This document shows positions 25,140 through 57,842 of a stretch of DNA of 64,000 nt, one piece after another; the stretch's first letter is position 1; every line of letters starts with the position of its first letter. Source of the DNA: Octopus vulgaris. Lineage: Eukaryota. Below the pieces are notes generated by a model. The model searched no databases. It had not been told where the DNA came from and saw nothing but the letters and a program-made list of their open reading frames with translations. Both the position numbers and the translations under genes were made by a program. The stretch spans positions 7,874,001 to 7,938,000 of the forward strand of contig OX597823.1 in NCBI GenBank assembly GCA_951406725.2. Reading direction: 5' to 3'.

Positions 25140-26050
25140 TTTGATACTTTGATACTTTGATAGGTTTCGGCCATTATTGGCCCAGGCCATGTCTAACTTA
25201 ATAGCACCACCTGGTGAAGTCTTTCAAGTCAGAATTTGGGCACTATGGCCCACTCAAGTAGAGAGTTATTGTTTACAGAGACATATCCGGGTGTAGGGGG
25301 TTTATCCGGGATTTCTTGAAGGAATCTGTCCAAAGACTTCTTGAACCCTATAGGGTCAGTTTCTGTTTTAATGTGTTTTGGTGTAATGTTAAAGAGAGCG
25401 GGGCCAATTGAGGTGAAATAATTGTGCCGTATTGTTGTTATGAGATGAGAGTGCAATTTTTGTTTTGGGCGGATGGCACGGGGCCCAAGCCTTGGATGTA
25501 CCTTAAAGGTGATGCCAACATCATTTGGGCAATGCTGATGGAATATTTTCCACATCATGCAGATGATGTAGCGCTCACGACGACGTTGGAGAGAATAAAG
25601 TTTTAGCTTTTCTAGTCGACCCCAATAGTCGAGGCCTGTCATGCCATCTATCTTTTTTGTGATTGCCCTTTGAGGTGCTTCAACTTTTATGATACTTTGT
25701 ATTGTGTGGGGAGACCACAGTGGACAACAGTATTCAAGGTGGGGTTGGGCAAAAGTGGAGAAGAGAAGGATAATGGTGTGGATATCTCTTGACTGGAAAG
25801 TTCTGAGAATCCAGGAACACATTCTGCGGGCCATGTCAACTTTGGTGTTTATATGAGTGGCCCAGCTTATGTTGTTGTCCATAATTACTCCCAAGTCTCT
25901 GATGTTGTTGGACGTCGCGAGAGTTTCACCTGAAGGAAGGGAGTATGGGAGTTTCAGGGCATCCTCTTTTCCAAAGTGGATTAACTCAAATTTATCCTCG
26001 TTCAGCAGCATATTGTTTTTTTTTCTGCCCATTGGATAACAGCCAGTAGA
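25140..26050 (-). mobile_element. 5'-truncated CR1-group LINE, same family as 53530-57930
   Basis: NNMLLNEDKFELIHFG...PDKPPTPGYVSVNNNSLLEW and the 3'UTR match the long copy; (TATCAAAG)n tail; (TA)n on both flanks. Confidence 0.92.
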
Positions 26051-26074
26051 TCTATATATATATCTACAGCCAGT

Positions 26075-26114
<40 letters not shown>

Positions 26115-26118
<4 letters not shown>

Positions 26119-26810
26119 TGGAAGCACTCCATCGGTTACGACGATGAGGGTTCCGGTTGATCCGAATCAACGGAACAGCCTGCTCGTGAAATTAACATGT
26201 AAGTGGCTCAGCACTCCACAGACACGTGTACCCTTAACGTAGTTCTCGGGGATATTCAGCGTGACACAGAGAGTGACAAGGCCGGCCCTTTGAAATACAG
26301 GTACAACAGAAACAGGAAGTAAGAGTGAGAGAGAATTGTGGTGAAAGAGTACAGCAGGGATCACCACCATCCCCTGCCGGAGCCTCGTGGAGCTTTGGGT
26401 GTTTTCACTCAATAAACACTCACAACGCCCGGTCTGGGAATCGAAACCGCGATCCTATGACCGCAAGTCCGCTGCCCTAACCACTGGGCCATTGCACCTC
26501 CATATATATATATATATATATGAAGGCACATGGCTCAGTGGTTAAAGGGTAGAGCTTACGATTGTGAGGTTGTGAGTTCAGTTCCTGGACTGAGCTGCAT
26601 GTTGTGTTCTTGAGCAAGACACTTTATTTCACGTTGCGCCAGTTAACTCAGCTGTAGAAATGAATTGCAACATCACTGGTGCCAAACTGTATCGGCCTTT
26701 GCCTTTCCCTTGGATAACACTGGTGGCGTGGAGAGAGGAGGCCGGTATGCATGGGCGACTGCTAGCCTTCCACAAACAATCTTGCTCTGACTTGTACCTC
26801 GGACTGAAAT
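26115..26810. mobile_element. Two divergently oriented SINE family B-related copies (about 26115-26500 minus, 26522-26810 plus)
   Basis: tRNA-like heads either side of a short TA tract; bodies share sequence with 3932-4255 and 43925-44170. Confidence 0.75.
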
Positions 26811-27391: not shown

Positions 27392-27463
27392 AAATTCTTT
27401 AGTTCGGTCAAGTTTTTCAATGCAGCTTCATCAAAATTGTTGATTTTATTATATTTCAATGTT
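27392..27463 (-). CDS. LRR exon 8 (L)TLKYNKINNFDEAALKNLTELKN
   Basis: 72 nt, CAG acceptor, GTAAGT donor, phase 2/2. Confidence 0.88.
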
Positions 27464-27717
27464 CTGTTAACGAAAGAAAGTTAATAAGAAATTATATAGG
27501 GAAGATTTGAGTGATAAAATATCAAATATTCAGAACAAACTGTAATAAGAAATAAGAAGTCAAGGATATTATGATAATACAAGTTGGTGAATCCTGATGT
27601 TTAATAAAGAAACTATCTTTCATATGTCTTTAATTAATGAGTGTCTTGTGAAGCATAATTGTAAAACTTAGGTTCTATTTTTTCTTGCATTTTAATTTTA
27701 TATTTTTCTATATTCAA

Positions 27718-28121
27718 CTAGCAGTATCGCCTGGTGTTGCTCGGGTTTGTAAGGGAAATAACTATATAAGCATTTTTAGAGAGTTATAGCCAAAAAATAG
27801 CAAAAAAATGCATTAAAAATGGAAAAAAAGGATGGTAAATTTTTTTTTAAATCGTTGACTCATCGTAGACATTTTTAGAGAGTTACTTCCCTTATATAAT
27901 AGCGAAAAAATGCATTAAAATGGAAAAAAATGATGGTAAATTTTTTTAAAATCGTAGACTCATTGTAGACATGCGCTAATACCCAGAAGGGCTCGATATG
28001 AATCACGACTATAAGATACCCGGTTTTGGTTAAACTGCATCGCAAAATGTGGGAGTAGTTAGGAATCTAAATCGGAGGAGACAGAGTCTCACACACACAA
28101 CTTCAATTTTATATATAAAGA
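27718..28121 (-). mobile_element. Non-autonomous Helitron family 2 (~400 bp)
   Basis: A|TCTTTATATATAAAA...CCCGAGCAACACCAGGCGATACTGCTAG|T on the minus strand; no TSD. Confidence 0.85.
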
Positions 28122-28699
28122 TAAGTCAACATTAAATACAAGTTATTTAACAAACACTATTTTATGGAAACAATACATACTATGGAGATATGAGAGATAG
28201 CAGGATATATGATATACAAAATTATTCTTTGCTTTTCTGATGTCAGTTTCTCATGCATTGTGTTGGTGGGAAATAAAATTTGAGTTGTAGGTGCACTAAA
28301 TTATTTGGGGCTCATTCGTGGTGTGATGGATGTAAAGAGATATGTCTAGCTGGGTAATTTCAGGGCCAGTATTATTTATATCAGATGTTCTTCAATACTT
28401 GAAGTACATTTGCTGCCAAGAGTAGTCAACATAAAACTGTCAGAGTGCAGCATTTAGCTGATTTAAATTTCCCAAAGGTTTAATGTGATCCAGACTATTG
28501 TGTTATAATGTACAGAGACATACTCAATATTATCTGAGTTAGAGGATTGAGTCTGTAGGTGAGAAAGATGACCAGCATATTTGTTGAGTCAGTATGATTG
28601 TCAATGATCTAGATGGATATGAGTATTGATAATGCTGAAATAGTAAATAAGCTGACATCAAAGACAATAGCCTCATAGTGTGAAGAGTCTAAGACACAA

Positions 28700-29652
28700 A
28701 GAGAGCTCTGCATACTGAAATCCACACTTAAAATAAATTTCAGTCTTAAAATGAATTTCAGGATGTCCAATTGATTTTGATGACAAGCTCCTGTTGACAG
28801 AACTTGAAAAAGATCATGCAGTTTCAGTGGAAGAATTGGCAAGCAAACTTCTTTCAAGACATACAGCTGTTCACCACCATCTCCAACAGCTTGGAAAGGA
28901 CCCAAAACTCAGAAAATGGGTGCCTTATGATTTGTTTGAAGCCAACCACAAATCCTGAGTGGATATCTGGTTGTCTTTTCGTTTTCACCCTTTTTGGACA
29001 AACTGGTGACTGGTGATGAAAAATGGGTTTGTTATGAAAATGTTAAGCTTTGTAGATATTAGCTTGGTGAAGGGAAAAGGCTCAACCATAACTGAAAAGG
29101 GAACTCCACGTTAAGAGGGATTTTCTTTCTGTTTGGTGGGATTGCAAAGGAATCTACTTTGAGTTGCTTCCAACTAATGCAACAATCAAGGATCAAATCT
29201 ACAGTCAGCAATTAGAGCATTTGAATGCTGCTTTGGAGAAAAGAGGCTAGTTTTAGTGAATTTAAGAGGAGTGGTGTTTCATCAGGACAAGACCCCACAC
29301 CGCAAAGATCACATCACAGAACATTGAGGAACCTGGCTGGGAGAAAATTGCTCATCCACCTTATTCTCTAAACCTTGCTCCTTTAGATTACAATTTGTTC
29401 TATAGTTTACAGAAACATTAGGATGGATTAACTCTCAAAATAACTGAGGGAGTCGAAACTGACCTTTCAGAGTTCTTCTCTTTCAAACAGAAAGATTTTT
29501 TCACTAATAGAATTAAAAAGCTTATGAGTAGACGGGAAGATGTCATAGATAATTATGCAAACTACATTGACAATTAAGTTTCATTGAAATGTAAGATTTG
29601 ATCACTTGTTTTCCATATTTAAGAGGTGGACATTACTTATGGGATGACATGC
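28700..29652 (+). mobile_element. Degenerate mariner related to 46763-48046
   Basis: LVTGDEKWVCYENVK and HPPYSLNLAPLDY remnants; right TIR remnant CTTATGGGATGAC. Confidence 0.8.
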
Positions 29653-29964: not shown

Positions 29965-31222
29965 AATCCTTAAAATCCTTAAAAATGTTTTAGCCTGAAG
30001 GCCGCGGCCATGCTGGGGCACCACCACTGAATGAGCTACACTAATTTGTGAATCCACCTCTGCTACGTGGCACTTGATCAACAAGGGAGTTCGATGCTGC
30101 TGCCCGCATCCGCATCTCCTGTCGTGAGGTAGGTTCATCTGGGACTTCCGACAAGAAGAGATCCAGTTTAGTTTTAAAGAAACCCACATCCACACCATGT
30201 AAGTCTCTCAGGCATTTAGGGAGGATGTTAAAGAGCTGTGGTCCTCTGAAACCCAAGCTGTTGCAGTATCTGGACCTGTATTTTGATGGTGATGTTGGAA
30301 TCCTTGGCACCATGCAGTGGCGCCCCATTCTGCGGTTGGGGTAACTTTGAATGCCAAAGTTTGGGACAAGACCCTCCAGAATTTTCCAGATGTATATCAC
30401 CGCATATCTCTCCCACCTCCACTCTAGGGAGAAGAGGTTTAATACCTTCAGTCTTTCCCAGTAGCTGATATTTTGCATTGAGACGATTTTCTTTGTGTAG
30501 CTTCTCTGAATTGCTTCGATTTCTGCTGTTAGTTTTATATTGTGTGGTGACCACAGTTGGGAGCAGTAGTCCAAGTGGCTGAGGACGAATGTTTTCCATA
30601 GGACCATCAGTGTCTCCTTCTCTCTTGTTCTGAAAGTTCGGAGAATCCATCCAGCTAGCCGTCTGCATTTTATCACCAGATTAGCAATATGCACTTGGAA
30701 AGATGCATCATTGCTCATGTCAATGCCCAGGTCACGCACTGATTTTGACTCAGGGATTGCAATTCTTCCTGGGCCAGTGTATCCAGTCTGCACGTCGTTT
30801 ACCTTTGTGTGCCAGTAGCGCAGGGCCTGGAACTTACCTGCATTAAACTGCATGTTGTTGTCCTCAGCCCACCTGTATATTGTGTCCAGCTCCTGTTGCA
30901 GATGCGCAATATTTTCAGGGTTTTGTATTGCATGGGAGACTTTTGTGTCATCTGCATAGCTAGCAAGGGTGGTCATCGTAGCAACTGAAGGCATGTCTGA
31001 AAGGGCCACTATGAACATCAGTGGCCCCAAGACAGTGCCCTGTGGAACACCGCTTGTTATTTGCGTTTCTTGGAGGTGGCTCCATTGCTCACAACTGCCT
31101 GTTTTCTGTCTTTTAGGAAGTTGTGCAGCCACTCTCCAAGTTTTCCGCCTATGCCGAGACCACGCAGTTTGTGACAGATCATACCATGGTCGACCTTATC
31201 AAAGGCTTTTGCAAAGTCGATA
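29965..31222 (-). mobile_element. 5'-truncated CR1-group LINE, second family
   Basis: [31 protein letters not shown] and LDYCSQLWSP motifs; one frameshift; long (TA)n tracts on both sides. Confidence 0.92.
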
Positions 31223-32534: not shown

Positions 32535-34391
32535 CAGGCATGCGAACTGTGTGATTCGGCCACTCTATGGCTCAAATATAGAGACAACCTGGCTGAAGAC
32601 TTTCAGCGCCAAGCTCAATTGCTCTATCCTGACATGCAGGGTATCAGCAATGAAATCTATAACAAAACACTCATTGACATTGAAGTCAAAATTGCTAAAC
32701 TGGGTGGAAATGAATTGTCGACGTATGGCCTGCCACAAGCATTCAGGTCAGGGTCAAATAGCCTTCCCACTGCTGTCATTCGTGAAACAACCTATGACAC
32801 TCAAGTGCTTTCAAGTACATTGTTGAAAACAAGCCTAAATTACTTCTGGACCAGCTGCAGGCCTACAGAACTATTCTTAACAGTGTACGCTAACGCGGGG
32901 GACAAATCTTCTTCCTCGATGCTCCTGGAGGAACAGGAAAAACATTTATTACAAAGCTTCTCCTTGCAGAAGTTAGGAAGCATCAGGACATTGCAGTAGC
33001 TGTAGCCTCCTCTGGCATTGCAGCTACTTTGTTACCCAGTGGCAGGACAGCACACTCAACTTTTAAACTCCCTCTCAATTTAGCAGCATCCGAAATGCCT
33101 TCATGCAACATCAACAAAAGCTCAGATCAGGGACAAGTACTTAAAATGTGTCATCTAATTGTCTGGGATGAGTGCATTATGGCTCACAAGGGAGCTTTGG
33201 AAGCATTTGATAGAGCCCTGAAAGACATCCGGGACAGTCAGCCTCCAATGGGAGGTGTAACGCTTCTGTTGTCAGGTGATTTCAGGCAAACTCTTCCTGT
33301 CATTCTAAAAGGCACTAGAGCAGATGAAGTCCAAGCATGCCTAAAGTCCTCTACGCTGTGGCATCATGTTACAATCCTCAGTCTCACTACTAACATGAGA
33401 GCTCAGCTACACGGCGACAAAATGTCCACAAAGTTTGCACAGGACATTTTGACACTTGGTGAAGACAAGATGCCTCTCGATGCTGCAGGACAAATGGAAG
33501 TGTGGTCATTTTCCTCTGTTGTTAATTCTGTAGATGACCTCAAAAACAAAGTCTTTCCCAGCTTCACACAAAACTACCAAAATCACAATTGGCTGTGTGA
33601 AAGAGCAATATTAGCTCCAAACAACGTCACTGTTAACAAAATTAATCAACAGCTAATGCATTCTCTTCCCGGCACTATACACACTTACAAGTCTGTTGAT
33701 ACAATTCCAGATATAAATGAATTTGTGAACTATCCTCCTGAATTTCTCAATTCACTGGAGCCTCCTGGACTACCTCCACACATATTAGCACTTAAAGTTC
33801 GAACTCTTGTAATGCTACTCCGCAATCTGGAACCACCAAGACTTTGCAATGGAATACGACTGGTGATAAAGAAAATGATGTCACGCGTTATCGAGGCGAT
33901 CATTATTTCTGGATGTGGAAAAGGTGATGACATCTTTATTCCAAGAATTCCTCTTACTCCATCAGGAGCAGAAATTCCATTTACATTCAGAAGACTGCAA
34001 TTCCCCCTTCGTGTCAGCTTTGCCATGTCCATTAACAAATCTCAGGGTCAAACCCTCTCTGTAGCTGGTCTTCTCGTGGAAGAGCCCTGCTTTTTGCATG
34101 GGCAACTGTATGTTGGCTGCTCAAGAGTAGGAACCAAAAGAAACCTTTTTGTATATACCCACAAGGAAAAACAAGGAACATTGTTTACAACGAGGTGTTA
34201 TAATCTCAACAGCCAGGAGGTATATACATGATCCCCTTTTTTTTTTAACAAACTTCATGTACTTTCATGTATTTATATTAATATACATATATATGTGTGT
34301 GCGTGTGTGTTTGTGTGTATCCATATATATATAACAGAAAAGTCTAATTCTTCAATTGAATGTAACCGGGCAACGCCAGGTATCTCTGCTA

Positions 34392-34392
<1 letters not shown>
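32535..34392 (+). mobile_element. Helitron, 5'-truncated autonomous-type remnant (PIF1-family helicase, frameshifted) with intact 3' end
   Basis: Motifs FFLDAPGGTGKTF, ASSGIAATLLPSGRTAHS, IVWDECIM, GDFRQTLPV, FAMSINKSQGQT and HGQLYVGCSRV. 3' hairpin ACCGGGCAACGCCAGGT followed by CTAG at 34389-34392. No Rep domain seen. Confidence 0.93.
33029..34231 (+). pseudogene. Helitron PIF1-like helicase, main open segment
   Basis: 400-aa ORF with SF1B helicase motifs. The upstream portion lies in a different frame and the C-terminus appears frameshifted. Confidence 0.88.
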
Positions 34393-34434
<42 letters not shown>

Positions 34435-34602
34435 GTCACAATGAGGTTATTTAAACTTCTTATATGGATATGTTTATCCAAGATACACTGCATACACATA
34501 TACATAAAGAGACAGGTACACAAAGAAGGACAAATGTGATATATTAAATGTTCAGGTACATAGTGCTAATGAAATAATATGAAAAAGGGTAATCCAACTT
34601 AC

Positions 34603-34674
34603 AAACTATTCAAAGTGGGAAGATCCCTGATTGCCCCTTCCATAATAAACGATATTGTATTATGTTCCAGAGAT
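34603..34674 (-). CDS. LRR exon 7 (L)SLEHNTISFIMEGAIRDLPTLNS
   Basis: 72 nt, intact splice sites, tandem copy. Confidence 0.8.
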
Positions 34675-35200
34675 CTATAGCAAAGAAAGAGATCATAAGA
34701 ATGTTAGCAAAAGATATTAAACATTAGGCTTAAATAATTAATTCTAAGCCGAATGATTGCTTAATAGTGATTGATTAATAGGAAAAATGAAGTCATGCTG
34801 ACAATTAATGATTCCAAATTGCATATATATTCATAAAAGCATAACGTCATTTATTCTGAAGGTGTCATCGTAGCTGTTATCCATTTTCTGTTAAATTGAA
34901 AAATGACTTGTCATTTGTTGTGATGTGTTATTCTTGTTTCCATTGTTAAACATGAATTTTCCAATTTGAATGAAATTATTTTTCTGCCCTAGTTGTTGAT
35001 TTTCCTATGCTATTCTTTGTCTTAATTAATTTTCATATTAATGTAACTGTTGTTGTATTGTTGCAATTCTATTTTAGTTTAATCTCGAGTGTGTGATTGA
35101 ATCAGATGTTTTATGACTGGTTATTAAAATAAGAAATATTGGCCTCATACTCTAAAACATATATGTGTGTCCTTATAAATGACATAATCATATATATACA

Positions 35201-35254
<54 letters not shown>

Positions 35255-35263
<9 letters not shown>

Positions 35264-36699
35264 CTGAGAATGTGTGTCTATCTGTCTGTCTGTGTGTTTC
35301 CCTAAAACTTGAGAACTACACAACCAATTTCATTCAAATTTTACACATGCCTTACTTAGGGTCCATGTAGTTTCATGGGCAAAACAAATGTTCAACTTCT
35401 TGCTTAGAGCGAGCCCAAAGCAATATCATATCTTCTCCACTATTTCAGTATTACATGTTAAAAGTGAAACAAAAACATTTCTCCATTTTATGTCAGATGC
35501 TTTCACTTTTACAATAAAAATAATAATAACAATTGAATTATATGTAGTAAGTAATAATTAAAATCAAACTAAAGTATAATATAATCGTAACATAACAAAA
35601 GTAAAAATAGCAATTGGTATAAAATTGCATCAATGACTTGAACTTGAATAAGTGGTTTCACATGAATGGGAATAAATTAAAAATAAAATTAGCGTGCAGA
35701 AATGGAATAGTCCAGATGGATAATAAAAAATTGAATTAAAGAAAAGACTATTGTCTATAAAGTATACAATGTAGAGAAAAAAGATTTGAACACCTGGAGG
35801 AAAGCACCATCGAAAAGTGTCTTGGTGCGACTATGAATGATATCTAACCAGAGGCGGTAAATTCGCCAGAATAGAAGCAAGGTTCGAGTCAACAGAGCAT
35901 TCAAAGGAGTACTCGACTTGAACTTGTGAAGTGGAAATATTTTATTTTTACCTTTACATCTGGGACGTAGGACGTCCTGGAAAAAAAATTTTAATGTCCT
36001 CCCCCCCCCCCGAAGTAGAGGTAGGCTGGATTGTAGCCACACTTCTGTACAAGAGGGAGGACAAGATACAATTGATCGAAATTACAAGAGACAGGCTAAC
36101 AATTCCAGTCTGTTATATATTTTGAGTATTGTTATCACTAGCGATATCAAGATATAACCTTGTATTTTGTATTTTATATGTAGATGTATATATATAGATG
36201 TACATGTAATAGATGTACAGGCGCAGGAGTGGCTGTGTGGTAAGTAGCTTGCTAACCAACCACATGGTTCCTGGTTCAGTCCCACTGCGTGGCACCTTGG
36301 GCAAGTGTCTTCTGCTATAGCCCCGGGCCGACCAATGCCTTGTGAGTGGATTTGGTAGACGGAAACTGAAAGAAGCCTGTCGTATATATGTATATATATA
36401 TATATGTGTGTTTGTTTGTGTGTCTGTGTTTGTCCCCCTAGCATTGCTTGACAACCGATGCTGGTGTGTTTATGTCCCCGTTACTTAGCGGTTCGGCAGA
36501 AGAGACCGATAGAATAAGTACTGGGCTTACAAAAAGAATAAGTCCCGGGGTCGAGTTGCTCGATTAAAGGCGGTGCTCCATCATGGCCACAGTCAAATGA
36601 CTGAAACAAGTAAAAAAAAAAAAGTAAAAAAAAGTAATATGTACACATATATACATGCACTAGCACTATGACCCGGCAACGACAGGTCTTTAATGCTAG
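35255..36699 (+). mobile_element. Non-autonomous Helitron family H, copy 1 (with SINE insertion)
   Basis: 5' region ...TATAACTGAGAATGTGTGTCTATCTGTCTG; 3' hairpin GACCCGGCAACGACAGGTC plus CTAG|T. Confidence 0.82.
36219..36633 (+). mobile_element. SINE family A nested in Helitron H copy 1
   Basis: Full head and tail; imperfect TSD gtaata(g)atgtaca / gtaatatgtaca. Confidence 0.85.
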
Positions 36700-36948
36700 T
36701 ATATATATAAGACTGAGAATGTGTGTCTGTCTGTCTGAGAACTACACAACGAATTTCATTCAAATATATATATATACATAGTCACAATGATGTTATTTAA
36801 ACCTCTTATATGGATATGTTTATCCAAGATACACTGCATACACATATACATAAAGAGACAGGTACACAAAGAAGGACAAATGTGATATATTAAATGTTCA
36901 GGTACATAGTGCTAATGAAATAATATGAAAAAGGGTAATCCAACTTAC

Positions 36949-37020
36949 AAACTATTCAAAGTGGGAAGATCCCTGATTGCCCCTTCCATAATAAACGATA
37001 TTGTATTATGTTCCAGAGAT
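36949..37020 (-). CDS. LRR exon 6 (L)SLEHNTISFIMEGAIRDLPTLNS
   Basis: 72 nt, intact splice sites, tandem copy. Confidence 0.78.
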
Positions 37021-37546
37021 CTATAGCAAAGAAAGAGATCATAAGAATGTTAGCAAAAGATATTAAACATTAGGCTTAAATAATTAATTCTAAGCCGAAT
37101 GATTGCTTAATAGTGATTGATTAATAGGAAAAATGAAGTCATGCTGACAATTAATGATTCCAAATTGCATATATATTCATAAAAGCATAACGTCATTTAT
37201 TCTGAAGGTGTCATCGTAGCTGTTATCCATTTTCTGTTAAATTGAAAAATGACTTGTCATTTGTTGTGATGTGTTATTCTTGTTTCCATTGTTAAACATG
37301 AATTTTCCAATTTGAATGAAATTATTTTTCTGCCCTAGTTGTTGATTTTCCTATGCTATTCTTTGTCTTAATTAATTTTCATATTAATGTAACTGTTGTT
37401 GTATTGTTGCAATTCTTTTTTAGTTTAATCTCGAGTGTGTGATTGAATCAGATGTTTTATGACTGGTTATTAAAATAAGAAATATTGGCCTCATACTCTA
37501 AAACATATATGTGTGTCCTTATAAATGACATAATCATATATATACA

Positions 37547-37577
<31 letters not shown>

Positions 37578-37585
<8 letters not shown>

Positions 37586-39022
37586 CTGAGAATGTGTGTC
37601 TATCTGTCTGTCTGTGTGTTTCCCTAAAACTTGAGAACTACACAACCAATTTCATTCAAATTTTACACATGCCTTACTTAGGGTCCATGTAGTTTCATGG
37701 GCAAAACAAATGTTCAACTTCTTGCTTAGAGCGAGCCCAAAGCAATATCATATCTTCTCCACTATTTCAGTATTACATGTTAAAAGTGAAACAAAAACAT
37801 TTCTCCATTTTATGTCAGATGCTTTCACTTTTACAATAAAAATAATAATAACAATTGAATTATATGTAGTAAGTAATAATTAAAATCAAACTAAAGTATA
37901 ATATAATCGTAACATAACAAAAGTAAAAATAGCAATTGGTATAAAATTGCATCAATGACTTGAACTTGAATAAGTGGTTTCACATGAATGGGAATAAATT
38001 AAAAATAAAATTAGCGTGCAGAAATGGAATAGTCCAGATGGATAATAAAAAATTGAATTAAAGAAAAGACTATTGTCTATAAAGTATACAATGTAGAGAA
38101 AAAAGATTTGAACACCTGGAGGAAAGCACCATCGAAAAGTGTCTTGGTGCGACTATGAATGATATCTAACCAGAGGCGGTAAATTCGCCAGAATAGAAGC
38201 AAGGTTCGAGTCAACAGAGCATTCAAAGGAGTACTCGACTTGAACTTGTGAAGTGGAAATATTTTATTTTTACCTTTACATCTGGGACGTAGGACGTCCT
38301 GGAAAAAAATTTTAATGTCCTCCCCCCCCCCCGGAAGTAGAGGTAGGCTGGATTGTAGCCACACTTCTGTACAAGAGGGAGGACAAGATACAATTGATCG
38401 AAATTACAAGAGACAGGCTAACAATTCCAGTCTGTTATATATTTTGAGTATTGTTATCACTAGCGATATCAAGATATAACCTTGTATTTTGTATTTTATA
38501 TGTAGATGTATATATATAGATGTACATGTAATAGATGTACAGGCGCAGGAGTGGCTGTGTGGTAAGTAGCTTGCTAACCAACCACATGGTTCCTGGTTCA
38601 GTCCCACTGCGTGGCACCTTGGGCAAGTGTCTTCTGCTATAGCCCCGGGCCGACCAATGCCTTGTGAGTGGATTTGGTAGACGGAAACTGAAAGAAGCCT
38701 GTCGTATATATGTATATATATATATATGTGTGTTTGTTTGTGTGTCTGTGTTTGTCCCCCTAGCATTGCTTGACAACCGATGCTGGTGTGTTTATGTCCC
38801 CGTTACTTAGCGGTTCGGCAGAAGAGACCGATAGAATAAGTACTGGGCTTACAAAAAGAATAAGTCCCGGGGTCGAGTTGCTCGATTAAAGGCAGTGCTC
38901 CATCATGGCCACAGTCAAATGACTGAAACAAGTAAAAAAAAAAAAAGTAAAAAAAAGTAATATGTACACATATATACATGCACTAGCACTATGACCCGGC
39001 AACGACAGGTCTTTAATGCTAG
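37578..39022 (+). mobile_element. Non-autonomous Helitron family H, copy 2 (with SINE insertion)
   Basis: Near-identical to copy 1; CTAG at 39019-39022. Confidence 0.82.
38541..38956 (+). mobile_element. SINE family A nested in Helitron H copy 2
   Basis: Same insertion site as in copy 1. Confidence 0.85.
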
Positions 39023-39271
39023 TATATATATAAGACTGAGAATGTGTGTCTGTCTGTCTGAGAACTACACAACGAATTTCATTCAAATATATATATATAC
39101 ATAGTCACAATGATGTTATTTAAACCTCTTATATGGATATGTTTATCCAAGATACACTGCATACACATATACATAAAGAGACAGGTACACAAAGAAGGAC
39201 AAATGTGATATATTAAATGTTCAGGTACATAGTGCTAATGAAATAATATGAAAAAGGGTAATCCAACTTAC

Positions 39272-39343
39272 AAACTATTCAAAGTGGGAAGATCCCTGAT
39301 TGCCCCTTCCATAATAAACGATATTGTATTATGTTCCAGAGAT
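39272..39343 (-). CDS. LRR exon 5 (L)SLEHNTISFIMEGAIRDLPTLNS
   Basis: 72 nt, intact splice sites, identical to the copies at 36949 and 34603. Confidence 0.78.
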
Positions 39344-39869
39344 CTATAGCAAAGAAAGAGATCATAAGAATGTTAGCAAAAGATATTAAACATTAGGCTT
39401 AAATAATTAATTCTAAGCCGAATGATTGCTTAATAGTGATTGATTAATAGGAAAAATGAAGTCATGCTGACAATTAATGATTCCAAATTGCATATATATT
39501 CATAAAAGCATAACGTCATTTATTCTGAAGGTGTCATCGTAGCTGTTATCCATTTTCTGTTAAATTGAAAAATGACTTGTCATTTGTTGTGATGTGTTAT
39601 TCTTGTTTCCATTGTTAAACATGAATTTTCCAATTTGAATGAAATTATTTTTCTGCCCTAGTTGTTGATTTTCCTATGCTATTCTTTGTCTTAATTAATT
39701 TTCATATTAATGTAACTGTTGTTGTATTGTTGCAATTCTTTTTTAGTTTAATCTCGAGTGTGTGATTGAATCAGATGTTTTATGACTGGTTATTAAAATA
39801 AGAAATATTGGCCTCATACTCTAAAACATATATGTGTGTCCTTATAAATGACATAATCATATATATACA

Positions 39870-39907
<38 letters not shown>

Positions 39908-40037
39908 ATTGAGGTAATCAGATCAGATGGTTCATATTTGTAGATATTTATTTATATATTACATTTTTTACATATATATCATATCATTCGGATTAGCGCT
40001 TGCTCCCATTCTAGTGGGTTTTATATATATATATATA

Positions 40038-41064
40038 TATATATAACTGAGAATGTGTGTCTATCTGTCTGTCTGTGTGTTTCCCTAAAACATGAGAACT
40101 ACACAACCAATTTCATTCAAATTTTACACATGCCTTACTTAGGGTCCATGTAGTTTCATGGGCAAAACAAATGTTCAACTTCTTGCTTAGAGCGAGCCCA
40201 AAGCAATATCATATCTTCTCCACTATTTCAGTATTACATGTTAAAAGAGAAACAAAAACATTTCTCCATTTTATGTCAGATGCTTTCACTTTTACAATAA
40301 AAATAATAATAACAATTGAATTATATGTAGTAAGTAATAATTAAAATCAAACTAAAGTATAATATAATCGTAACATAACAAAAGTAAAAATAGCAATTGG
40401 TATAAAATTGCATCAATGACTTGAACTTGAATAAGTGGTTTCACATGAATGGGAATAAATTAAAAATAAAATTAGCGTGCAGAAATGGAATAGTCCAGAT
40501 GGATAATAAAAAATTGAATTAAAGAAAAGACTATTGTCTATAAAGTATACAATGTAGAGAAAAAAGATTTGAACACCTGGAGGAAAGCACCATCGAAAAG
40601 TGTCTTGGTGCGACTATGAATGATATCTAACCAGAGGCGGTAAATTCGCCAGAATAGAAGCAAGATTCGAGTCAATGGAGCATGCAAGGCAGTACTAGAC
40701 TCGAACTTGCAAAGTGGAAATATTTTATTTTTACGTTTATATCTGGGACGTAGGACGTCCCGGATAAAAATGAAAAATGTCCTCCCTCCCAGCAGTAGAG
40801 GCAGGCTGGATTGTAGCCACACTTCTATACAAGAGGGAGGACAAAATACAATTGATCGAAATTGCAAGAGACGGGCTTACAATTCCAGTCTGTTATATAT
40901 TTTGAGTATTGTTATCACTAGCGATATCAAGATATAACTTTGTATTTCGTATTTTATGTGTAGATGTATATATATATAGATGTACATGTAATATGTACAC
41001 ATATATATACACATATATACATGCACTAGCACTATGACCCGGCAACGACGGGTCATAATGCTAG
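40038..41064 (+). mobile_element. Non-autonomous Helitron family H, copy 3 (no SINE; diverged 3' part)
   Basis: Same 5' region; hairpin GACCCGGCAACGACGGGTC plus CTAG at 41061-41064; empty SINE site. Confidence 0.82.
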
Positions 41065-41086
41065 TATATATATATATATATATATA

Positions 41087-42668
41087 TCTTTATATATATA
41101 AAACTGAGAATGTGTGTCTGTCTGTCTGTGCGTTTCCCTAAAACTTGAGAACTACACAACCAATTCCATTCAAATTTTACACAAGCCTTACTTAGGGTCC
41201 ATGTAGTTTCATGGGCAAAAAAAATGTTCAACTTCTTGCCTAGAGCGAGCCCATAGCAATATCATATCTTCTCCACTACGATTCCCTAAAACTTGAGAAC
41301 TACACAACCAATTCCATTCAAATTTTACACATGCCTTACTTAGGGTCCATGTAGGTTCATGGGCAAAACAAATGTTCAACTTCTGGCCTAGAGCGAGCCC
41401 ATAGCAATATCATATCTTCTCCACTATTTCAGTATTACATGTTAAAAGGGAAACAAAAACGTTTCTCTATTTTATGTCAGATACTTTCACTTTAACAATA
41501 AAAATAATAGTAACAATTGAATTATATGTAGTAAGTAATAATTAAAATCAAACTAAAGTAACATGACAAAAGTAAAATAGCAATTGATATAAAATTGCAT
41601 CAATGACTTGAACTTGAATAAGTTGTTTCACATGAATGGGAATAAATTAAAAATAAAATTAGCGTGCAGAAATGGAATAGTCCAGATGGATAAAAAAAAA
41701 TTAAATTAAAGAAAAGACTATTGTCTATAAAGTATACAATGTAGAGAAAAAGATTTGAACACCTGGAGGAAAGCACCATCGAAAAGTGTCTTGGTGCGAC
41801 TATGAAAGGTAGCTAATCAGAGGCGGTAAATTCGCCAGAATAGAAGCAAGGTTCGAGTCAACAGAGCGTTCAAAGGAGTACTCGACTTGAACTTGTGAAG
41901 TGTAAATATTCTATTTATACCTTTACATCTGGGACGTAGGACGTCCCGGAAAAAAAATTTTAATGGCTCCCCCCCCCCCCGAAGTAGAGGTAGGCTGGAT
42001 TGTAGCCACACTTCTGTACAAGAGGGAGGACAAGATACAATTGATCGAAATTACAAGAGACGGGCTAGCAATTCCAGTCTGTTATATATTTTGAGTATTG
42101 TTATCACTAGCAATATCAAGATATAACCTTGTATTTTGTATTTTATATGTAGATGTATATATATAGATGTACATGTAATAGATGTACAGGCGCAGGAGTG
42201 GCTGTGTGGTAAGTAGCTTGCTAACCAACCACATGGTTCCTGGTTCAGTCCCACTGCGTGGCACCTTGGGCAAGTGTCTTCTGCTATAGCCCCGGGCCGA
42301 CCAATGCCTTGTGAATGGATTTGGTAGACGGAAACTGAAAGAAGCCTGTCGTATATATGTATATATATATATGTGTGTTTGTTTGTGTGTCTGTGTTTGT
42401 CCCCCTAGCATTGCTTGACAACCGATGCTGGTGTGTTTATGTCCCCGTTACTTAGCGGTTCGGCAGAAGAGACCGATAGAATAAGTACTGGGCTTACAAA
42501 AAGAATTAGTCCCGGGGTCGAGTTGCTCGATTAAAGGCGGTGCTCCAGCATGGCCACAGTCAAATGACTGAAACAAGTAAAAAAAAAAAAAAGTAAAAAA
42601 AAGTAATATGTACACATATATACATGCACTAGCACTATGACCCGGCAACGACGGGTCTTTAATGCTAG
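41087..42668 (+). mobile_element. Non-autonomous Helitron family H, copy 4 (complete A|TC 5' end, ~150 bp internal duplication, SINE insertion)
   Basis: Begins TCTTTATATATATAAAACTGAGAATG, ends with the hairpin plus CTAG at 42665-42668; about 41135-41280 is repeated at about 41282-41427. Confidence 0.85.
42188..42602 (+). mobile_element. SINE family A nested in Helitron H copy 4
   Basis: Same insertion site as in copy 1. Confidence 0.85.
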
Positions 42669-42917
42669 TATATATATAAGACTGAGAATGTGTGTCTGTC
42701 TGTCTGAGAACTACACAACCAATTTCATTCAAATATATATATATACATAGTCACAATGAGGTTATTTAAACCTCTTATATGGATATGTTTATCCAAGATA
42801 CACTGCATACACATATACATAAAGAGACAGGTACACAAAGAAGGACAAATGTGATATATTAAATGTTCAGGTACATAGTGCTAATGAAATAATATGAAAA
42901 AGGGTAATCCAACTTAC

Positions 42918-42989
42918 AAACTATTCAAAGTGGGAAGATCCCTGATTGCCCCTTCTTTAATAAACGATATTGTATTATGTTCCAGAGAT
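42918..42989 (-). CDS. LRR exon 4 (L)SLEHNTISFIKEGAIRDLPTLNS
   Basis: 72 nt, intact splice sites, tandem-duplicated copy. Confidence 0.82.
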
Positions 42990-43504
42990 CTATAGCAAAG
43001 AAAGAGATCATAAGAATGTTAGCAAAAGATATTAAACATTAGGCTTAAATAATTAATTCTAAGCCGAATGATTGCTTAATAGTGATTGATTAATAGGAAA
43101 AATGAAGTCATGCTGACAATTAATAATTCCAAATTGCATATATATTCATAAAAGCATAACGTCATTTATTCTGAAGGTGTCATCGTAGCTGTTATCCATT
43201 TTCTGTTAAATTGAAAAATGACTTGTCATTTGTTGTGATGTGTTATTCTTGTTTCCATTGTTAAACATGAATTTTCCAATTTGAATGAAATTATTTTTCT
43301 GCCCTAGTTGTTGATTTTCTTATGCTATTCTTTGTCTTAATTAATTTTCATATTAATGTAACTGTTGTTGTATTGTTGCACTTCTTGTTTAGTTTAATCT
43401 CGAGTGTGTGATTGAATCAGATGTTTTATGACTGGTTATTAAAATAAGAAATATTGGCCTCATACTCTAAAACATATATGTGTGTCCTTATAAATGACAT
43501 ATTC

Positions 43505-43591
<87 letters not shown>

Positions 43592-43594
<3 letters not shown>

Positions 43595-43895
43595 TCATCA
43601 TCATCATCATCATCGTCGTTTAACGTCCGTTCTCCATGCTAGCATGGGTTGGACGGTTCGACCGGGGTTCTGGGAAGCCAGAAGGCTGCACCAGGCTCCA
43701 GTCTAATCTGGCAATGTTTCTACAGCTGGATGCCCTTCCTAACGCCAACCACTCCGTGAGTGTAGTGGGTGCTTTTTACGTGCCACCTGCACAGGTGCCA
43801 GGCGGGGCTGGCAACGGCCACGGTCAGATTGGTGTATTTTATGTGCCACCGGCACGGAAGCCAGTTGAGGTGGTGCTGGCATCGGCCACGAGTCG
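43592..43895 (-). mobile_element. RTE-tail short repeat
   Basis: Same family; further partial copies at about 26812-26980 (-), 31651-31805 (-) and 48480-48740 (+). Confidence 0.8.
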
Positions 43896-44318
43896 GATAA
43901 TATATACATATACATATATATATATCAAAGCACTTTATTTCACGTTGCTCCAGTTCACTCAGCTGTAGAAATGAGTTGCGACGTCACTGGTGCCAAGCTG
44001 TATCGACCTTTGTCTTTCCTTTGGATAACACTGGTGGCATGGAGAGGGGAGGCTGGTATGCATGGGCGACTGCTGGTCTTCCATAAACAACCTTGCCCGG
44101 ACTTGTGTCTAGGAGGGTAACTTTCTAGGTGCAATCCCATGGTCATTCATGACCGAAGGGGGTCTTTACCTTTATATATATGTATGTATTTATATAGTCG
44201 CAATGAGGCTATTTAAACCTCACATACACATATACATAAAGAAGGACAAATGCGAAACATTAAATGTTTAGGTACATAGTGCCAATGAAATAATATGAAA
44301 AACAGTAACTCAACTTAC

Positions 44319-44390
44319 AAAGTCTTCAAAGTGGGAAGATCCCTGATTGCCCCTTCTATAATAAACGATATATTATTATGTTCCAGAGAT
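44319..44390 (-). CDS. LRR exon 3 (L)SLEHNNISFIIEGAIRDLPTLKT; most diverged copy of the duplicated exon
   Basis: 72 nt, TAG acceptor, GTAAGT donor, phase 2/2, typical extracellular LRR. Confidence 0.88.
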
Positions 44391-44559
44391 CTATAGCAAA
44401 GAAAAAGATCATAAGAATTTGAGCAAAATCTGTGATAAGACTTAAATATTAGGCTTAAACAATTAAAATTTTTAAAGCAATTGCTTCATAAGGAATATAA
44501 AGTTGAGGTGGCTAATTATGGAGATAAAAGCAATTAGTATATATCTTTGTTGACAAAAG

Positions 44560-46762: not shown

Positions 46763-48046
46763 TCAGGTCATCCCATAAGTTCTGTCCGATTTTATCTTTT
46801 TTAAAATTGAACGAAATTTAATAGTATTTTAGACTGTCTGATGGAATTAAAAATTATTTTTATGCATTTGTGTACATTTAAACTAATTAAATATTATTTT
46901 ACAGAATAATAGAATTAAAATTTCTTTGATTAAAACCCTTTCTAACGTGGAAGTATCCAAAGAACATATTTAAGGCACATAATGCTTTTTGAGTACAAAA
47001 AATGGAAACTCCGCAGCTGAAGCGACTTGAAACATACACTCAGTTTATAGGAAAGAACGCTTGAATGAAAGAACTTGCAGAAGATGGTTTGCAAAATTCA
47101 GAAGTGGAGATTTCAGCCTTGAAGATGAAGATCAAACAGGACGTCCAGTTGAGTTTGATGATAAGCTCCTTGGGGCATTACTTGAAGAAAATCCTGCATT
47201 ATCAGTTGAAGAATTGGCAATAAAGTTTAGTTCAAACCATACAACTGTTTGTAGTCATCTTCAACAACTTGGAAAGGTTCCTAAACTTGGAAAATGGATG
47301 ACTCATGAATTGTCCGAAAGCAACTGCAAATCCCGAGTTGACATCTGCTCTTCTCTCCAGTCTCGCAAACTTATTTCACCCTTTTTGGATAGACTTGTGA
47401 TGAAAAATGGATCTTCTATCGAAATGTTAAATGTCGTAAACAGTGGCTTGGTAAAAGGGGGAAAAGCTCAGCCACAACTGAGAAGGGAACTTCATGGTAA
47501 AAAGGTTCTTCTCTGTATCTGGTGTGATTACAAAGGAGTAATTCACTTTGAATTGTTACCACCTAATGCAACAATCAATTCTCAAGTCTACTGTCAGCAA
47601 ATTGAGCGTTTGAAACAAGCTTTAAAGAAAAAAAGACCCACTTTAGTGAATCGAAAAGAGTGATGTTTCATCAGGACAATGTGCAACCCCACACCACAAA
47701 GATCACATCACAGAAGATCGAAGAGCTTGGTTGGAAAAAAATTCCTCATCCACCTTATTCTCCCAACGTTGCTCCTTCAGACTACCATTTGTTTTGTAGT
47801 TTACAGAATCATTTGGGGGACATAACTTTCGAAAGTCAGGAGGGGGTCGATTCTGATATTTCAGAGTTCTTTGCTTTGAAACCAAAAGAGTTTTATATTG
47901 ATGGGATTAAAAAGCTTGTAAATAGATGGAAGGAAGTCATAGATAATCAAGGAAAGTACATTGATGACTAAATTTCAATTAAATATAACATTTTATCACT
48001 TGTTTTCTTTATTCAAAATTTGGACAGAACTTATGGAATGACTTGA
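46763..48046 (+). mobile_element. Mariner DNA transposon, full length, frameshifted transposase
   Basis: TIRs TCAGGTCATCCCATAAGTTCTGTCC / GGACAGAACTTATGGAATGACTTGA followed by TA; motifs WFAKFRSGDFSLEDE, WMTHEL, FHQDNVQPH and HPPYSPNVAPSDYHLF. Confidence 0.93.
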
Positions 48047-48176: not shown

Positions 48177-48248
48177 AATTCTTTTAAATTCAGAAGGGTT
48201 CTGATTGACCAAAGTTGAAAAAAGGCGAAGTCATTATAAGTCAGGTTC
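48177..48248 (-). CDS. LRR exon 2 (L)NLTYNDFAFFQLWSIRTLLNLKE
   Basis: 72 nt, AG...GTAAGT, phase 2/2, matches the LxxLxLxxN register. Confidence 0.88.
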
Positions 48249-49442
48249 CTATAATAAAGAAAATAATTGTTTAAAATTGTTTAGAACAGATCATCAATAA
48301 AATATTAGATATTAGATTAAAAGAATTAGTTGATTTTTAAAGTAGATGTTTAATGAAAATAGGAAACCTTGATGGACATAGTATTATAATAGAGTAAGGC
48401 ACATGCTGTCAAGCTAAGTAAAATCGCTGTCATCCGTACATAAAAGCTAAGTAAGATCACTGTCAACCATACATACAGGCTTGTCCTGTACAGGTGCTGG
48501 TACCACATAAAATGTACTCATGCCAGTGTTGCGTAAACACACCTGTGCTGGTGGCATGTAAAAAGCCCTAAGCACACTCTATAAAGTAGTTGGTGTTAGG
48601 AAGGGCACCCAACCATAGAAACGATGCCACAACAGACAATTGGAGTCTGGACAGTTCTTGGGCTGGCCTACTTCTGTCAAACTGTCCAACCCATGCCAGC
48701 ATGGAAAATGGATGTTAAACAATGATGATGATGATGATGTCGATGTGGTTAAAACTGCAGCAAACTTAACGTTTTAACTAAAAGGAATAAGTACAATTTC
48801 ATTTCAATGTGAATGTATCTTTGTAAAGTCTCAAAGGCTTCAAAGTGGCTGTCGACCATTTTCTTTCAAATAGAATAATTAACTCTAATTTACTATGCTG
48901 TCTATATCCTGTCACCATTTCTAAAGTTGATCACTTCTTTGTCACTACCATTTCTTGAGAGCCACAAATGAATTGTCATGTAATGAGTTCTTGAATTATT
49001 TTCCTGGTGTGTCATTTCTATTATTTTTGTGCTATATTTCTGAACTTGTCTGACATCAAAATGAAACAAGAATTATATGGATGAATACTGTTCTTAGTCT
49101 ACGCAACATAACAAATACATTGGACATAAAGGGTGCGTTTATTTGGATAAACATGTACATACTCACATGCAGTCACAGATACAGACTCATACACACAGAC
49201 ACATAAGCTATAGAGATATAGAAAGATTGACAATTAGAGATGATATAAAGAGTGACTTAAACAGTAACAGTGAAGCAATCTCATTTTTAAAAGGGGCAGA
49301 TGATAAAAAATTCATTAATATTCATAGGGGCTGATATTTGTCGGTTTGAAATCCGCTATTTTAAATGACAATATAACCAATATGAATAAAATTTAGAAAA
49401 ATTATGTATGTAATAAATATTTTGAAATTGTTTAAAACTTAC

Positions 49443-49642
49443 AATTTTGTCACATTCATTGGAAATGAGCTGGGCCATGGCTTTTTACATTCCATATCAG
49501 TCTGAAACTGATCACATGTGCATGAGGTGTAACATTTAGTTGTCATTGACTGGTCAACATATATTAAGATTAACAAAATCATTAACATAAATTTGATTTT
49601 GATAGAATCAAAAGAAAATCTTGATTTACTATTGTAGGTCAT
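49443..49642 (-). CDS. LRR-LU gene coding exon 1: signal peptide + LRR N-terminal cap (MTYN...MLMILLILIYVDQS...KCYTSCTCDQFQTDMECKKPWPSSFPMNVTK)
   Basis: Hydrophobic leader and a CxxxCxC...C LRRNT pattern. Ends in phase 2 at a GTAAGT donor (cttac at 49438-49442 on +). A polypyrimidine/CAG acceptor at 49750-49751 implies the exon extends to 49749 as 5'UTR. Confidence 0.88.
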
Positions 49643-50901
49643 ATTCTAAAAAGAAATATTTCACCACTGAACACGAACGTTAGGCGTCGAGAATCTCTTA
49701 CTAAGCCGACAAAAGTTCCGTTTTCAAGATCAGTCACATGTAAAATAATCTGTAAGAGAAGAAAATGCAAAATAACAGAAGCTTATATTTTATTTACTTC
49801 ACATTACTGACTCATTGTTCTAAGTAGAAATTGGATCTTAGGACTCAATTACTTTCCATTAGATTTTTAGAATTACGAAACTGGATGTCACTGTAACAAT
49901 ATACAATACATTAATAGATATCCTTCTAATTAGTGATAATGTTGATTGAAAGCCTAAGATAAATCGCTTTAACTCACACACACACATCTAAACGGTAGAT
50001 GCTGGGTTCTGCAACTTGGTATCTTTACTTTGATCTTGAGCCAAACATTGATTATGTATGAGATGTTTTATGGTGCTGACTGATGATCTTGTGTAGGTCT
50101 ATGCTTTCTGCTGCGGGTAGTGAGTCCTGCTTTGGTGTGTGCTACGAATCCACAATCATCACAAATAAAGACATTTGAAGAGAACTTAATCACAATGTTT
50201 CTATCTACTCATTTCAAACTATTTCAGACTAGTGAAATACGATGTTCTTACATTTTACTTTTCAGTAAGATTCTCATCAACAGTTAAATTCAATATTACA
50301 GTGCTTGAAATTATCCTTAAGCATTGTTATAAACCCAAACTCGAATATCAAAGTTTAAAAGGTTTTAATTGACTAAAAATACAGCAATATACAATACAAA
50401 GATTGCTAAATTGTAAGCAAAACCAAACTTCAACGCAATAACATTTTTATGCAGTGAGTTGCTACATTCTAGACAAACTAAAATCAACGCTGAACACGTC
50501 ATCTGAAAACAGAACAGAACTCAAGAGGGACGATATACAGGACTTTCTTTATTCCAAAGCAAACCATACATCTTTCATCTGAACAGAGTACCCTGCCTAT
50601 CTCAACTGAATTAATATGCATATATAAGTAAAGCAGGTGTCAACATGCCAAGAAATTTCAATGAATTAAAATTAGTGATGCGGACAACTATTATCTGAAT
50701 TCTAGTCATACGTGTGTTTGTGTGTATGTTTAGAAGGATAAATGGTATTCCATCTAACGTGACTTCGCTCAGAAGGCTGTAATGTCATTGTGGTAGGAAC
50801 CCGGTAAAGAAATACATGGAGCAAAGATGATAACTTTAAATACGTTTATTGTAGTCACACGTATATATATACACTAGCTGAATGTAAGTGGTTGATGTAC
50901 A

Positions 50902-51291
50902 TCTTTATATATAAAAAAGAGGTTGTGTGCTGTCTGTCTCCTACGATTTAGATTCCTAACTACTCCCACATTTTGCGGTGCAGTTTAACCAAAACCGGGT
51001 ATCTTATAGTCGTGATTCATATCGAGCCCTTCGAGCGCGTCTATGATGAGTCTACGATTTTTAAAAAAATTTACCATCAATTTTCCCCATTTTTAATGCA
51101 TTTTTGGCATATATAAGGGAAGGAACTCTCTAAAAATTTATTATTAAATCTCAGAACGTAAAAAGCTACAGTAACTCCCCACCCCCTTTGTGGTTAGCCA
51201 TATTGAGATGGCTATTATACTTTACATCTCTAAAAATGCTTATATAGTTATTTCCCTTACAAATCCGAGCAACGCCGGGCGATACTGCTAG
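50902..51291 (+). mobile_element. Non-autonomous Helitron family 2
   Basis: A|TC start, CCGAGCAACGCCGGG hairpin, CTAG|T end; homologous to 27718-28121. Confidence 0.85.
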
Positions 51292-57800: not shown

Positions 57801-57842
57801 AATAACTCTCTGCTCGAATGGGCCTCGGTGCCCAAATCCTGA
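54830..57842 (+). pseudogene. LINE ORF2 (AP endonuclease + reverse transcriptase), disrupted
   Basis: Split into 54830-56641, 56595-57326 and 57513-57842 by a frameshift near 56605 and in-frame TGA codons; catalytic FADD appears as FAED. Confidence 0.92.

Follow-up and report, generated by a model that had tools for sequence, protein, structure and literature searches.

An exon of 72 nt that encodes one leucine-rich repeat (LRR) occurs five times within an adhesion G protein-coupled receptor (GPCR) gene of Octopus vulgaris. This array probably grew by unequal crossing-over in which Helitron transposons served as passive homology, and several of the copies are apparently spliced in a row, lengthening the LRR solenoid of the receptor; we give this reading a probability of about 0.75. 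The array lies in a 64,000-nt stretch of the 2.8-Gb genome (G000:C10:7874001-7938000), referred to here as the window, and all positions are window coordinates. Part of the evidence comes from two of the Helitron spacers between exon copies, which change from one parental type to another deep inside the element.

The repeated exon and its blocks

The exon copies were identified by scanning for exons bounded by AG..GT that fit an LRR pattern, and they fall at 34603-34674, 36949-37020, 39272-39343, 42918-42989 and 44319-44390, all on the minus strand. Each is of phase 2/2 with intact splice sites (ttgctatag/gtaagttg), and the scan thereby bears out an earlier description of the window made from its letters alone (the original prediction), which had named these five symmetric exons. 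The copies at 34603, 36949 and 39272 are identical to one another (..TISFIME..), the copy at 42918 carries two adjacent base changes that turn M into K (the K variant), and the copy at 44319 differs from the three identical ones at 5 nt. Each of the four young copies sits within a block of about 0.76 kb (B1 to B4), and the blocks are separated by non-autonomous Helitrons of a dispersed TC..hairpin CTAG family, much as had been predicted for blocks of ~0.77 kb. The prediction erred in treating all spacers alike, in that the third consists of two different Helitrons, H3 and H4, together with a Penelope-type end (x) and the short segment r. From left to right, the array and its immediate surroundings contain the following features, with TA tracts on both sides of B1, after B2, B3 and B4, on both sides of x, and between H3 and H4.

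32535-34392, plus strand: 5'-truncated, frameshifted fragment of an autonomous-type Helitron, with a PIF1 helicase open reading frame (ORF) at 32894-34228 and a hairpin plus CTAG
34431-35186, plus strand: block B1, exon 34603-34674 (minus); no r at its left
35263-36699, plus strand: H1, chimeric Helitron with a short interspersed element (SINE) at 36220-36634; switch from H3-type to H4-type between 35848 and 35882
36700-36776, plus strand: r1, copy of r
36777-37532, plus strand: block B2, exon 36949-37020 (minus); B4-like left end (r flank, site 27) and B1-like right part
37585-39022, plus strand: H2, chimeric Helitron, H3-type 5' part and H4-type 3' part with the SINE
39023-39099, plus strand: r2, copy of r
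39100-39855, plus strand: block B3, exon 39272-39343 (minus); identical to B2
39900-40022, no strand assigned: x, end of a very young Penelope-type retroelement in a TA tract, absent from the chimeric units
40046-41064, plus strand: H3, non-autonomous Helitron that has lost its TC head and has no SINE; it supplied the 5' half of H1 and H2
41087-42668, plus strand: H4, complete non-autonomous Helitron (TC ... hairpin CTAG) with a 148-bp internal duplication and a SINE insert at 42189-42603; the 3' half of H1 and H2 derives from its lineage
42669-42745, plus strand: r4, decayed 5' fragment of another H-family element, with no TC and an 18-nt deletion
42746-43501, plus strand: block B4, exon 42918-42989 (minus; K variant); three intron alleles common to organism C
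44319-44390, minus strand: old LRR exon copy (N-IS-F-II-E..KT); with its flanks (~44195-44466) 9.5% diverged from B4

Blocks B2 and B3 show no difference over 754 positions, B1 and B2 differ at 3 of 754, and B2 and B4 at 7 of 754; B4 and the old copy differ at 27 of 285 (~9.5%). A genome-wide search found no full-length match to block B elsewhere in the 2.8 Gb, and because the block is confined to this locus the similarity within the array is not due to chance. Short matches to the first 46-68 bp of B were considered as dispersed, transduced copies and rejected, since they represent the terminus of another repeat. All blocks (34431-34490) and the old copy (44195-44222) have as their left edge the TA-adjacent terminus of another dispersed repeat (L006, L007, L010); the old and young duplications thus share a left boundary at a TA tract.

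Chimeric spacers and the question of rolling-circle capture

The spacers H1 and H2 are each a chimera whose left part resembles H3 and whose right part resembles H4. From 35311 to 35860, H1 differs from H3 at 1 of 550 positions and from H4 at 20 of 535; from 35870 to 36190 the differences number 32 of 318 positions against H3 and 11 of 321 against H4. Left of 35848, H1 shares with H3 six alleles that are rare among 27 other copies of the family, and right of 35882 it has in common with H4 the SINE insertion and twelve rare alleles, two of which fall in a homopolymer that aligns poorly. The change from H3 to H4 falls about 600 bp into the element, well away from either terminus. A junction element of this kind, with its switch inside shared homology as in H1 and H2 at 35848-35882, is the mark of non-allelic homologous recombination, that is, of unequal crossing-over between two neighboring Helitrons and then between exon blocks. 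The blocks have a comparable structure: B2 and B3 combine the left flank and site-27 allele of B4 (one informative site on the left) with the alleles of B1 further to the right. Unequal crossing-over seeded by the Helitron and TA tracts had been the second of two mechanisms proposed in the original prediction, and it fits the chimeric spacers. The H3-derived part of the chimeras has diverged less from its parent (2/598) than the H4-derived part (23/1648; Fisher p=0.04), as would be expected if H3 recombined with an H4 of a diverged allele or unit. A paralogous gene also counts in favor of crossing-over: P0006 (C29:18672800-18708000; L062-L065) has 15 phase-2/2 LRR exons of 72 nt, including a 3-exon unit that is triplicated at 94-98% identity, and no end of the scanned Helitron families was detected inside the triplicated stretch, using an end pattern tuned to three families.

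The proposed history would begin with an old duplication that produced the 44319 copy (~9.5% diverged). Block B would then have been duplicated between TA tracts (~1%), and Helitrons, favoring TA tracts at this locus, would have come between the copies to give the order B-H3-H4-r-B. A misaligned exchange of H3 with H4, involving a slightly diverged allele or unit, could next have created the short chimeric spacer, after which exchanges between B blocks would have added the spacer-plus-B unit once or twice. Finally, the Penelope-type end would have been inserted between B3 and H3. Two or three unequal exchanges, starting from B-H3-H4-r-B, would suffice for the present order.

The elements themselves were compared with the rest of the genome. 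Among 3602 first-look candidates for the H family, 40 were scored and 27 other copies were compared by eye; the copies are dispersed over many contigs with unrelated flanks. The 5' TC head is present in 21 of these 27 (by eye) and in H4 and has been lost in H1-H3, and the 3' hairpin (GACCCG..CGGGTC) with CTAG followed by T is present in 26 of the 27 and in H1-H4. The H spacers are thus a true non-autonomous Helitron family. The helicase-encoding element at the left of the array (Pfam PIF1, 1.5e-57) has 1571 genome candidates, of which 40 were scored (93-96% identity), and these relatives continue past its 5' break. Its 3' tail is unlike that of H, and an intact ORF for Rep plus PIF1 helicase and a 5' end are not present in the 32535-34392 copy, which is a remnant. 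It had been proposed that the array begins right after the CTAG end of a helicase-encoding Helitron; the fragment does end just before the array, at 34392, but it is 5'-truncated and frameshifted. For x, 687 candidates were found, all 40 of those scored are 100% identical over 108 bp, and the parent copy carries a GIY-YIG ORF (L113-L116). Judged by this identity, the Penelope-type element is likely to be currently active, and the lack of x in the H1 and H2 units is most simply explained by a later insertion. Copies of this element often occur as inverted pairs 0.7-6 kb apart, adjoining TA tracts.

Rolling-circle transposition offers another route to the same array, in which H4 or the helicase element would have bypassed its terminator, taken r and B along and re-inserted or concatemerized locally, with later recombination blurring the joints. 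Read-through transduction of this kind has been shown experimentally for Helraiser (PMC4778049), an element of the same class with the same termini (5' TC, hairpin, CTAG) and the same target between A and T. At the octopus locus, each of the four young blocks has a real Helitron 3' end on its left, either immediately or with r in between, the H4-r-B orientation is the one that a 3' transduction would give, and read-through could account for the first duplication of B. However, the Helraiser report describes circles with precise CTAG-TC joints and dispersed composites whose re-insertions did not cluster near their donors (PMC4778049), and neither signature is found here. The array contains no CTAG-TC junction between copies and no unit that starts at a Helitron 5' end, and no new hairpin/CTAG terminator lies to the right of any B, each of which ends in a TA tract. 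The search for H plus the exon at other loci, called for in the original prediction, found none of 27 other H copies followed by B and full-length B only in this array. Furthermore, B1 has neither H nor r on its left, the 5' TC is missing in H1-H3, and the helicase fragment is truncated and frameshifted. The breakpoints proved unrelated to the Helitron termini, an outcome that the original prediction had linked with ordinary unequal crossing-over, and we consider expansion by read-through very unlikely.

A key part of the rolling-circle proposal was the identification of r as a ~60-bp aborted restart of the Helitron 5' end, and this idea was rejected. The segment occupies 77-bp intervals (e.g. 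42669-42745), lacks TC and is unlike the head of the element that precedes it: compared with the head of H4 it reads AAGACT for AAAACT and AATTTC for AATTCC, and it carries an 18-nt deletion. It occurs after H1, H2 and H4, whereas neither H3 nor the helicase fragment has an r behind it; a TA tract lies between H3 and H4, which are ~4-12% diverged. Junctions of CTAG to a Helitron head are also common between differing family members. There are 43 of them genome-wide, only 2 of which begin with TC, and the commonest type, CTAG followed by TATATATATAA(A/G)ACTGAG, accounts for 23 of the 43 (3 of these in the array). The joined elements were compared at 29 of 40 outside loci; in all 11 of the 29 with an alignment of at least 200 bp they are 81-91% alike and thus different family members, the exception to the general picture being L102, with a 110-bp upstream/downstream match of 99% across the junction. 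From these comparisons, the outside junctions look like one Helitron inserted into the TA head of another. Ten loci (L089-L092, L095-L098, L104, L108) share a junction of the type CTAG followed by TATATCGATATATATGAAACTGAG, and these are probably a composite Helitron that has spread with an internal old 3' end. Chains of at least three H-family Helitrons arranged head to tail occur at L105/L106 (C8:78.53 Mb) and at L102.

Helitron ends at TA tracts are common in this genome. A pattern scan for the 3' ends of these Helitron families gave 8 over 164 kb at this locus and 10 over 200 kb of C29, and the genome as a whole is dense in transposable elements (TEs), with ~5 Helitron ends per 100 kb. A Helitron expansion with 178 recently active insertions has been reported for O. 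vulgaris (PMC13282606). A second, short Helitron family (TC ... GCAACGCCGGGCGATACTGCTAG) is represented in the window at 50901-51292, 59548-59946 and 27717-28122, and is frequent at the C29 locus too.

Copies in transcripts, copy number and selection

Whether the copies are used was approached through sequencing runs available as assembled contigs, 4 of 24 of which were compared over 36630-37530 (901 bp); such contigs show presence, not absence, and carry no copy number. Runs X2 and X8, from two studies and of presumed RNA type, cover the exon, while all intron bins between 36754 and 37530 are empty in them. Both runs contain one contig of 39 nt, with exon positions 35-72 and one further base, and one of 93 nt, in which exon positions 1-64 are preceded by 29 letters. 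When seven models were simulated with k=31, exactly 39 plus 93 arose only from multi-copy models with young-type ends, and single-copy models gave no break. These sizes suggest that a young-type exon end is likely spliced to another young copy, i.e. tandem inclusion. The RNA-type contigs of X2 and X8 also carry the three diagnostic differences of the old copy in exon positions 1-64, and a 507-nt contig of X8, with three differences (the same number as the old copy has there), runs into the upstream exon at 48177 (29 of 30 letters). Contig depth ratios for the young junction versus the old start (154:42 in X2, 6.1:2.8 in X8) would hint at more than two copies in each transcript, but they were not used, since contig depth cannot rank parts of a gene.

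Protein records tell a similar story. The O. vulgaris protein P0019 includes three copies (old, K and M), and O. sinensis P0021 also has three (R-F-Q, T-Y-E, R-F-Q), with isoform records that lack each in turn; all 7 O. sinensis isoform records differ by skipped LRR exons or a truncated start. The O. bimaculoides records begin downstream of the repeated exon and give no count. Because each exon is of phase 2/2 and encodes exactly one 24-residue repeat, any copy number keeps the frame, and the proposal that LRR modules are being added in frame to a host protein gains support from the identity of that protein, an LRR adhesion GPCR, and from the tandem inclusion suggested by the RNA-type contigs.

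The number of copies is less secure than their arrangement. One chimeric unit (H plus r plus B) could be an assembly duplicate, leaving a real array of four exon copies; the count would change and the mechanism would not. Units 1 and 2 are 99.8% identical, differing by one substitution at a CpG and three homopolymer indels in 2.29 kb, B2 equals B3, and the public protein P0019 uses 3 copies only. Against this, B1, B3 and B4 differ in flanks and alleles, a young insertion (x) belongs to B3 alone, and the chimeric-unit allele at 36791 and the r-B junction are present in DNA run X13, from another study of organism A. That run provides one 793-nt contig that extends from inside r across block B, with a T of B2/B3 type at 36791 and with a new F-to-Y variant of the exon; the r-B junction is therefore not peculiar to the assembly of the window. 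Given the distinct flanks and alleles, x and the X13 junction, the whole array cannot be an artefact, and we regard a false extra unit as rather unlikely. In organism C, DNA run X14 contains block B with three intron alleles common to B4 and with exon codons for R, Y and Q, and its contigs break at 37035, the first site at which old-type and young-type acceptor flanks differ. On the strength of these contigs, organism C likely has both old and young kinds of copy. The main B contig from organism C begins with 7 letters unlike r, a hint that the block there lacks r, but one joint (36681 to 36761, with a 22-letter side) is ambiguous and no conclusion was drawn.

The extra young copies might instead be mostly neutral clutter, randomly included or skipped with no effect on the receptor. 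The copies show no sign of purifying or positive selection, the exon skipping and truncated start among the 7 O. sinensis isoforms look like loose splicing or mapping ambiguity, and the genome is dense in TEs. On the other side, all five copies keep intact splice sites, tandem inclusion was deduced from the data of two studies, the multi-copy state is common to O. sinensis, and one codon encodes five different residues (M, K, I, Q, E) when copies and species are compared. The exon has a higher density of variable sites (6/72) than the introns (11/682), with p=0.003, or p=0.12 when adjacent sites are merged. Neutrality is a serious alternative, though less likely than not. Variation is seen at repeat positions 10 (T/N/R), 13 (F/Y) and 15 (M/K/I/Q/E), which presumably lie on the side of the solenoid and not in the middle of its concave face, as we place them from the LRR consensus; ahead of the conserved Asn, the residues S, E and H are constant across copies and species. 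Copy number and exon skipping would tune the length of the ectodomain and the side surface of the solenoid, and the outer surface that would thereby be lengthened probably serves in binding.

Several observations weigh against growth by unequal crossing-over with tandem use of the copies. The first duplication of B left no diagnostic junction, and one of the near-identical units may be a false duplication. Within the H4-type part, H1 differs from H4 by 3.2% over the 339 bp before the SINE and by ~0.9% further right, and a rare allele at 35899 is common to H1 and H3, so that the history was less simple than a single clean crossover; chimeric elements can also arise through gene conversion or template switching. 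At the C29 paralog, besides the narrow tuning of the Helitron-end pattern, a 1.1-1.3 kb repeat of no assigned type lies within the triplicated stretch and is present four times inside P0006. The RNA evidence consists of assembled contigs from runs with guessed RNA status. The young-to-young joint is deduced from the sizes of the contigs, and a model that matches the assembly exactly (old, K and three young copies) gives other unitig sizes unless bulges are removed. The K variant of B4 was not seen in X2 or X8, whose contigs show presence and not absence. Lastly, there is no significant excess of amino-acid-changing over silent changes among the copies (p=0.30), and for the paralog pN is 0.058, equal to pS at 0.058.

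The receptor family and comparable systems

The host gene is an LRR-GAIN/GPS-seven-transmembrane (7TM) adhesion GPCR of a large octopus family. Pfam assigns LRR_8, GPS and 7tm_2 domains to both P0019 and P0021, and the gene combines a GPS motif, a secretin-family 7TM and a long adhesive N-terminus, with its exons mapped as follows.

49442-49642, minus strand: first coding exon, signal peptide and LRR N-cap (tblastn with O. sinensis P0021, 98.5%)
48177-48248, minus strand: single-copy LRR exon, upstream of the array; the old-type contig of X8 has this sequence as its loose end at the exon edge
27392-27463, minus strand: LRR exon next downstream of the array (exon scan and protein mapping)
24091, 19842, 17395 (75 nt) and 13320: further downstream LRR exons
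8989-9158: LRR C-cap
out to ~50 kb left of the window: GAIN/GPS and 7TM exons

The nearest proteins are octopus records, and P0019 matches the exon variants of the window. With the 7TM exon, 51 matches at >=50% identity and E<1e-24 were obtained among 58 listed in the genome; 34 of these 51 close paralogous matches cluster on C29, C30 and C31. LRR number ranges from ~4 (P0004, by eye) to 15 among three family members compared, and a DNA search with one paralog exon gave 16 matches, all of them C29 neighbors. An octopus-specific expansion of adhesion GPCRs (group 3) has been described in which 5 of 22 members carry LRRs (Ritschard et al. 2019, PMC6408891). The host gene shares with it the GPS, the adhesion 7TM and the occasional LRR, and judging from its domain content and the 51 matches, it is a candidate member of group 3. 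That account concerns expansion at the level of genes, whereas the present case is an intragenic duplication of LRR exons with a probable mechanism.

Several further features of the gene and its surroundings were observed. The LRR exon at 17395-17469 is 75 nt in the window (an extra Thr) and 72 nt in O. sinensis, and is missing from the O. bimaculoides records and one O. sinensis isoform. Two decayed copies of what is, judging from motifs, presumably a mariner-like transposase (47031-48000 and 28737-29606, 74% alike) lie within receptor introns. Upstream of the gene is a near-complete element at 53742-57839 (plus strand) with ORF1, endonuclease and reverse transcriptase frames, presumably of the long interspersed element type, with related fragments at 25232-26191 and 30044-31195. 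An open frame of 291 aa for a C2H2 zinc-finger array (L049, minus strand) lies ~23-24 kb to the right of the window.

Alu-Alu exon duplications are a familiar product of repeat-mediated non-allelic homologous recombination, with chimeric junction elements. The octopus array resembles them in its chimeric junction element, in a crossover within shared homology and in the in-frame duplication of an exon, and differs in having two Helitrons as its substrate and a product that is apparently tolerated and transcribed. A closer parallel in protein terms is provided by the 90-bp-exon LRR genes of Tetrahymena, described as having one LRR per exon, phase 2 introns and arrays formed by unequal crossing-over, with a transposon adjoining the repeat units as a proposed recombination substrate (PMC6564038). 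There the report concerns thousands of genes and a LINE-like REP element whose role was proposed from association; here a single animal adhesion GPCR with 72-nt exons and Helitrons is involved, and the crossover can be mapped inside the element. In the ROCO genes and the NB-ARC-TPR genes of Ectocarpus the repeat is likewise the exon, and duplication varies repeat number in candidate recognition proteins; diversifying selection was reported for those cytoplasmic GTPases and NLR-like proteins (PMC3341825), in contrast to the GPCR studied here, for which the test of changing versus silent substitutions was not significant. In the adhesion GPCR CD97/ADGRE5, the number of EGF repeats in the ectodomain is controlled one exon at a time and changes the affinity for ligand (PMC8191316), a model for what the octopus copies could do. 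The CD97 exons are described as old, diverged and varied by splicing alone, whereas those of the octopus are young, near-identical genomic duplicates. Our literature searches found no paper on LRR-exon duplication in octopus GPCRs or on this locus, and the array is a clear new case of a known process.

The locus is an unusually readable example of transposon remnants reshaping a protein, in which an exon-multiplying crossover can be narrowed down to 35 bp of a Helitron, with a multiplied-exon product that appears to be transcribed. It also carries a warning that, in TA-rich, Helitron-dense genomes, Helitron ends beside duplicated exons need not indicate rolling-circle capture. A broader and distinctly speculative idea, which we think quite unlikely to hold in full, is that the ~50 octopus-expanded adhesion GPCRs, where they bear LRRs, form a cassette-built recognition repertoire, with repeat number shifting among alleles and species by TE-seeded unequal crossing-over, and again by exon skipping, and with hypervariable residues on the side of the solenoid. 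If true, this would amount to a diversity code like that of Dscam or the protocadherins, or to a set of immune or chemotactile sensors, built into a GPCR, and the present locus would be the engine of that repertoire caught in action. Short of this, the array suggests that intragenic change in LRR number adds a second layer of diversity to the expanded adhesion GPCRs of octopuses.

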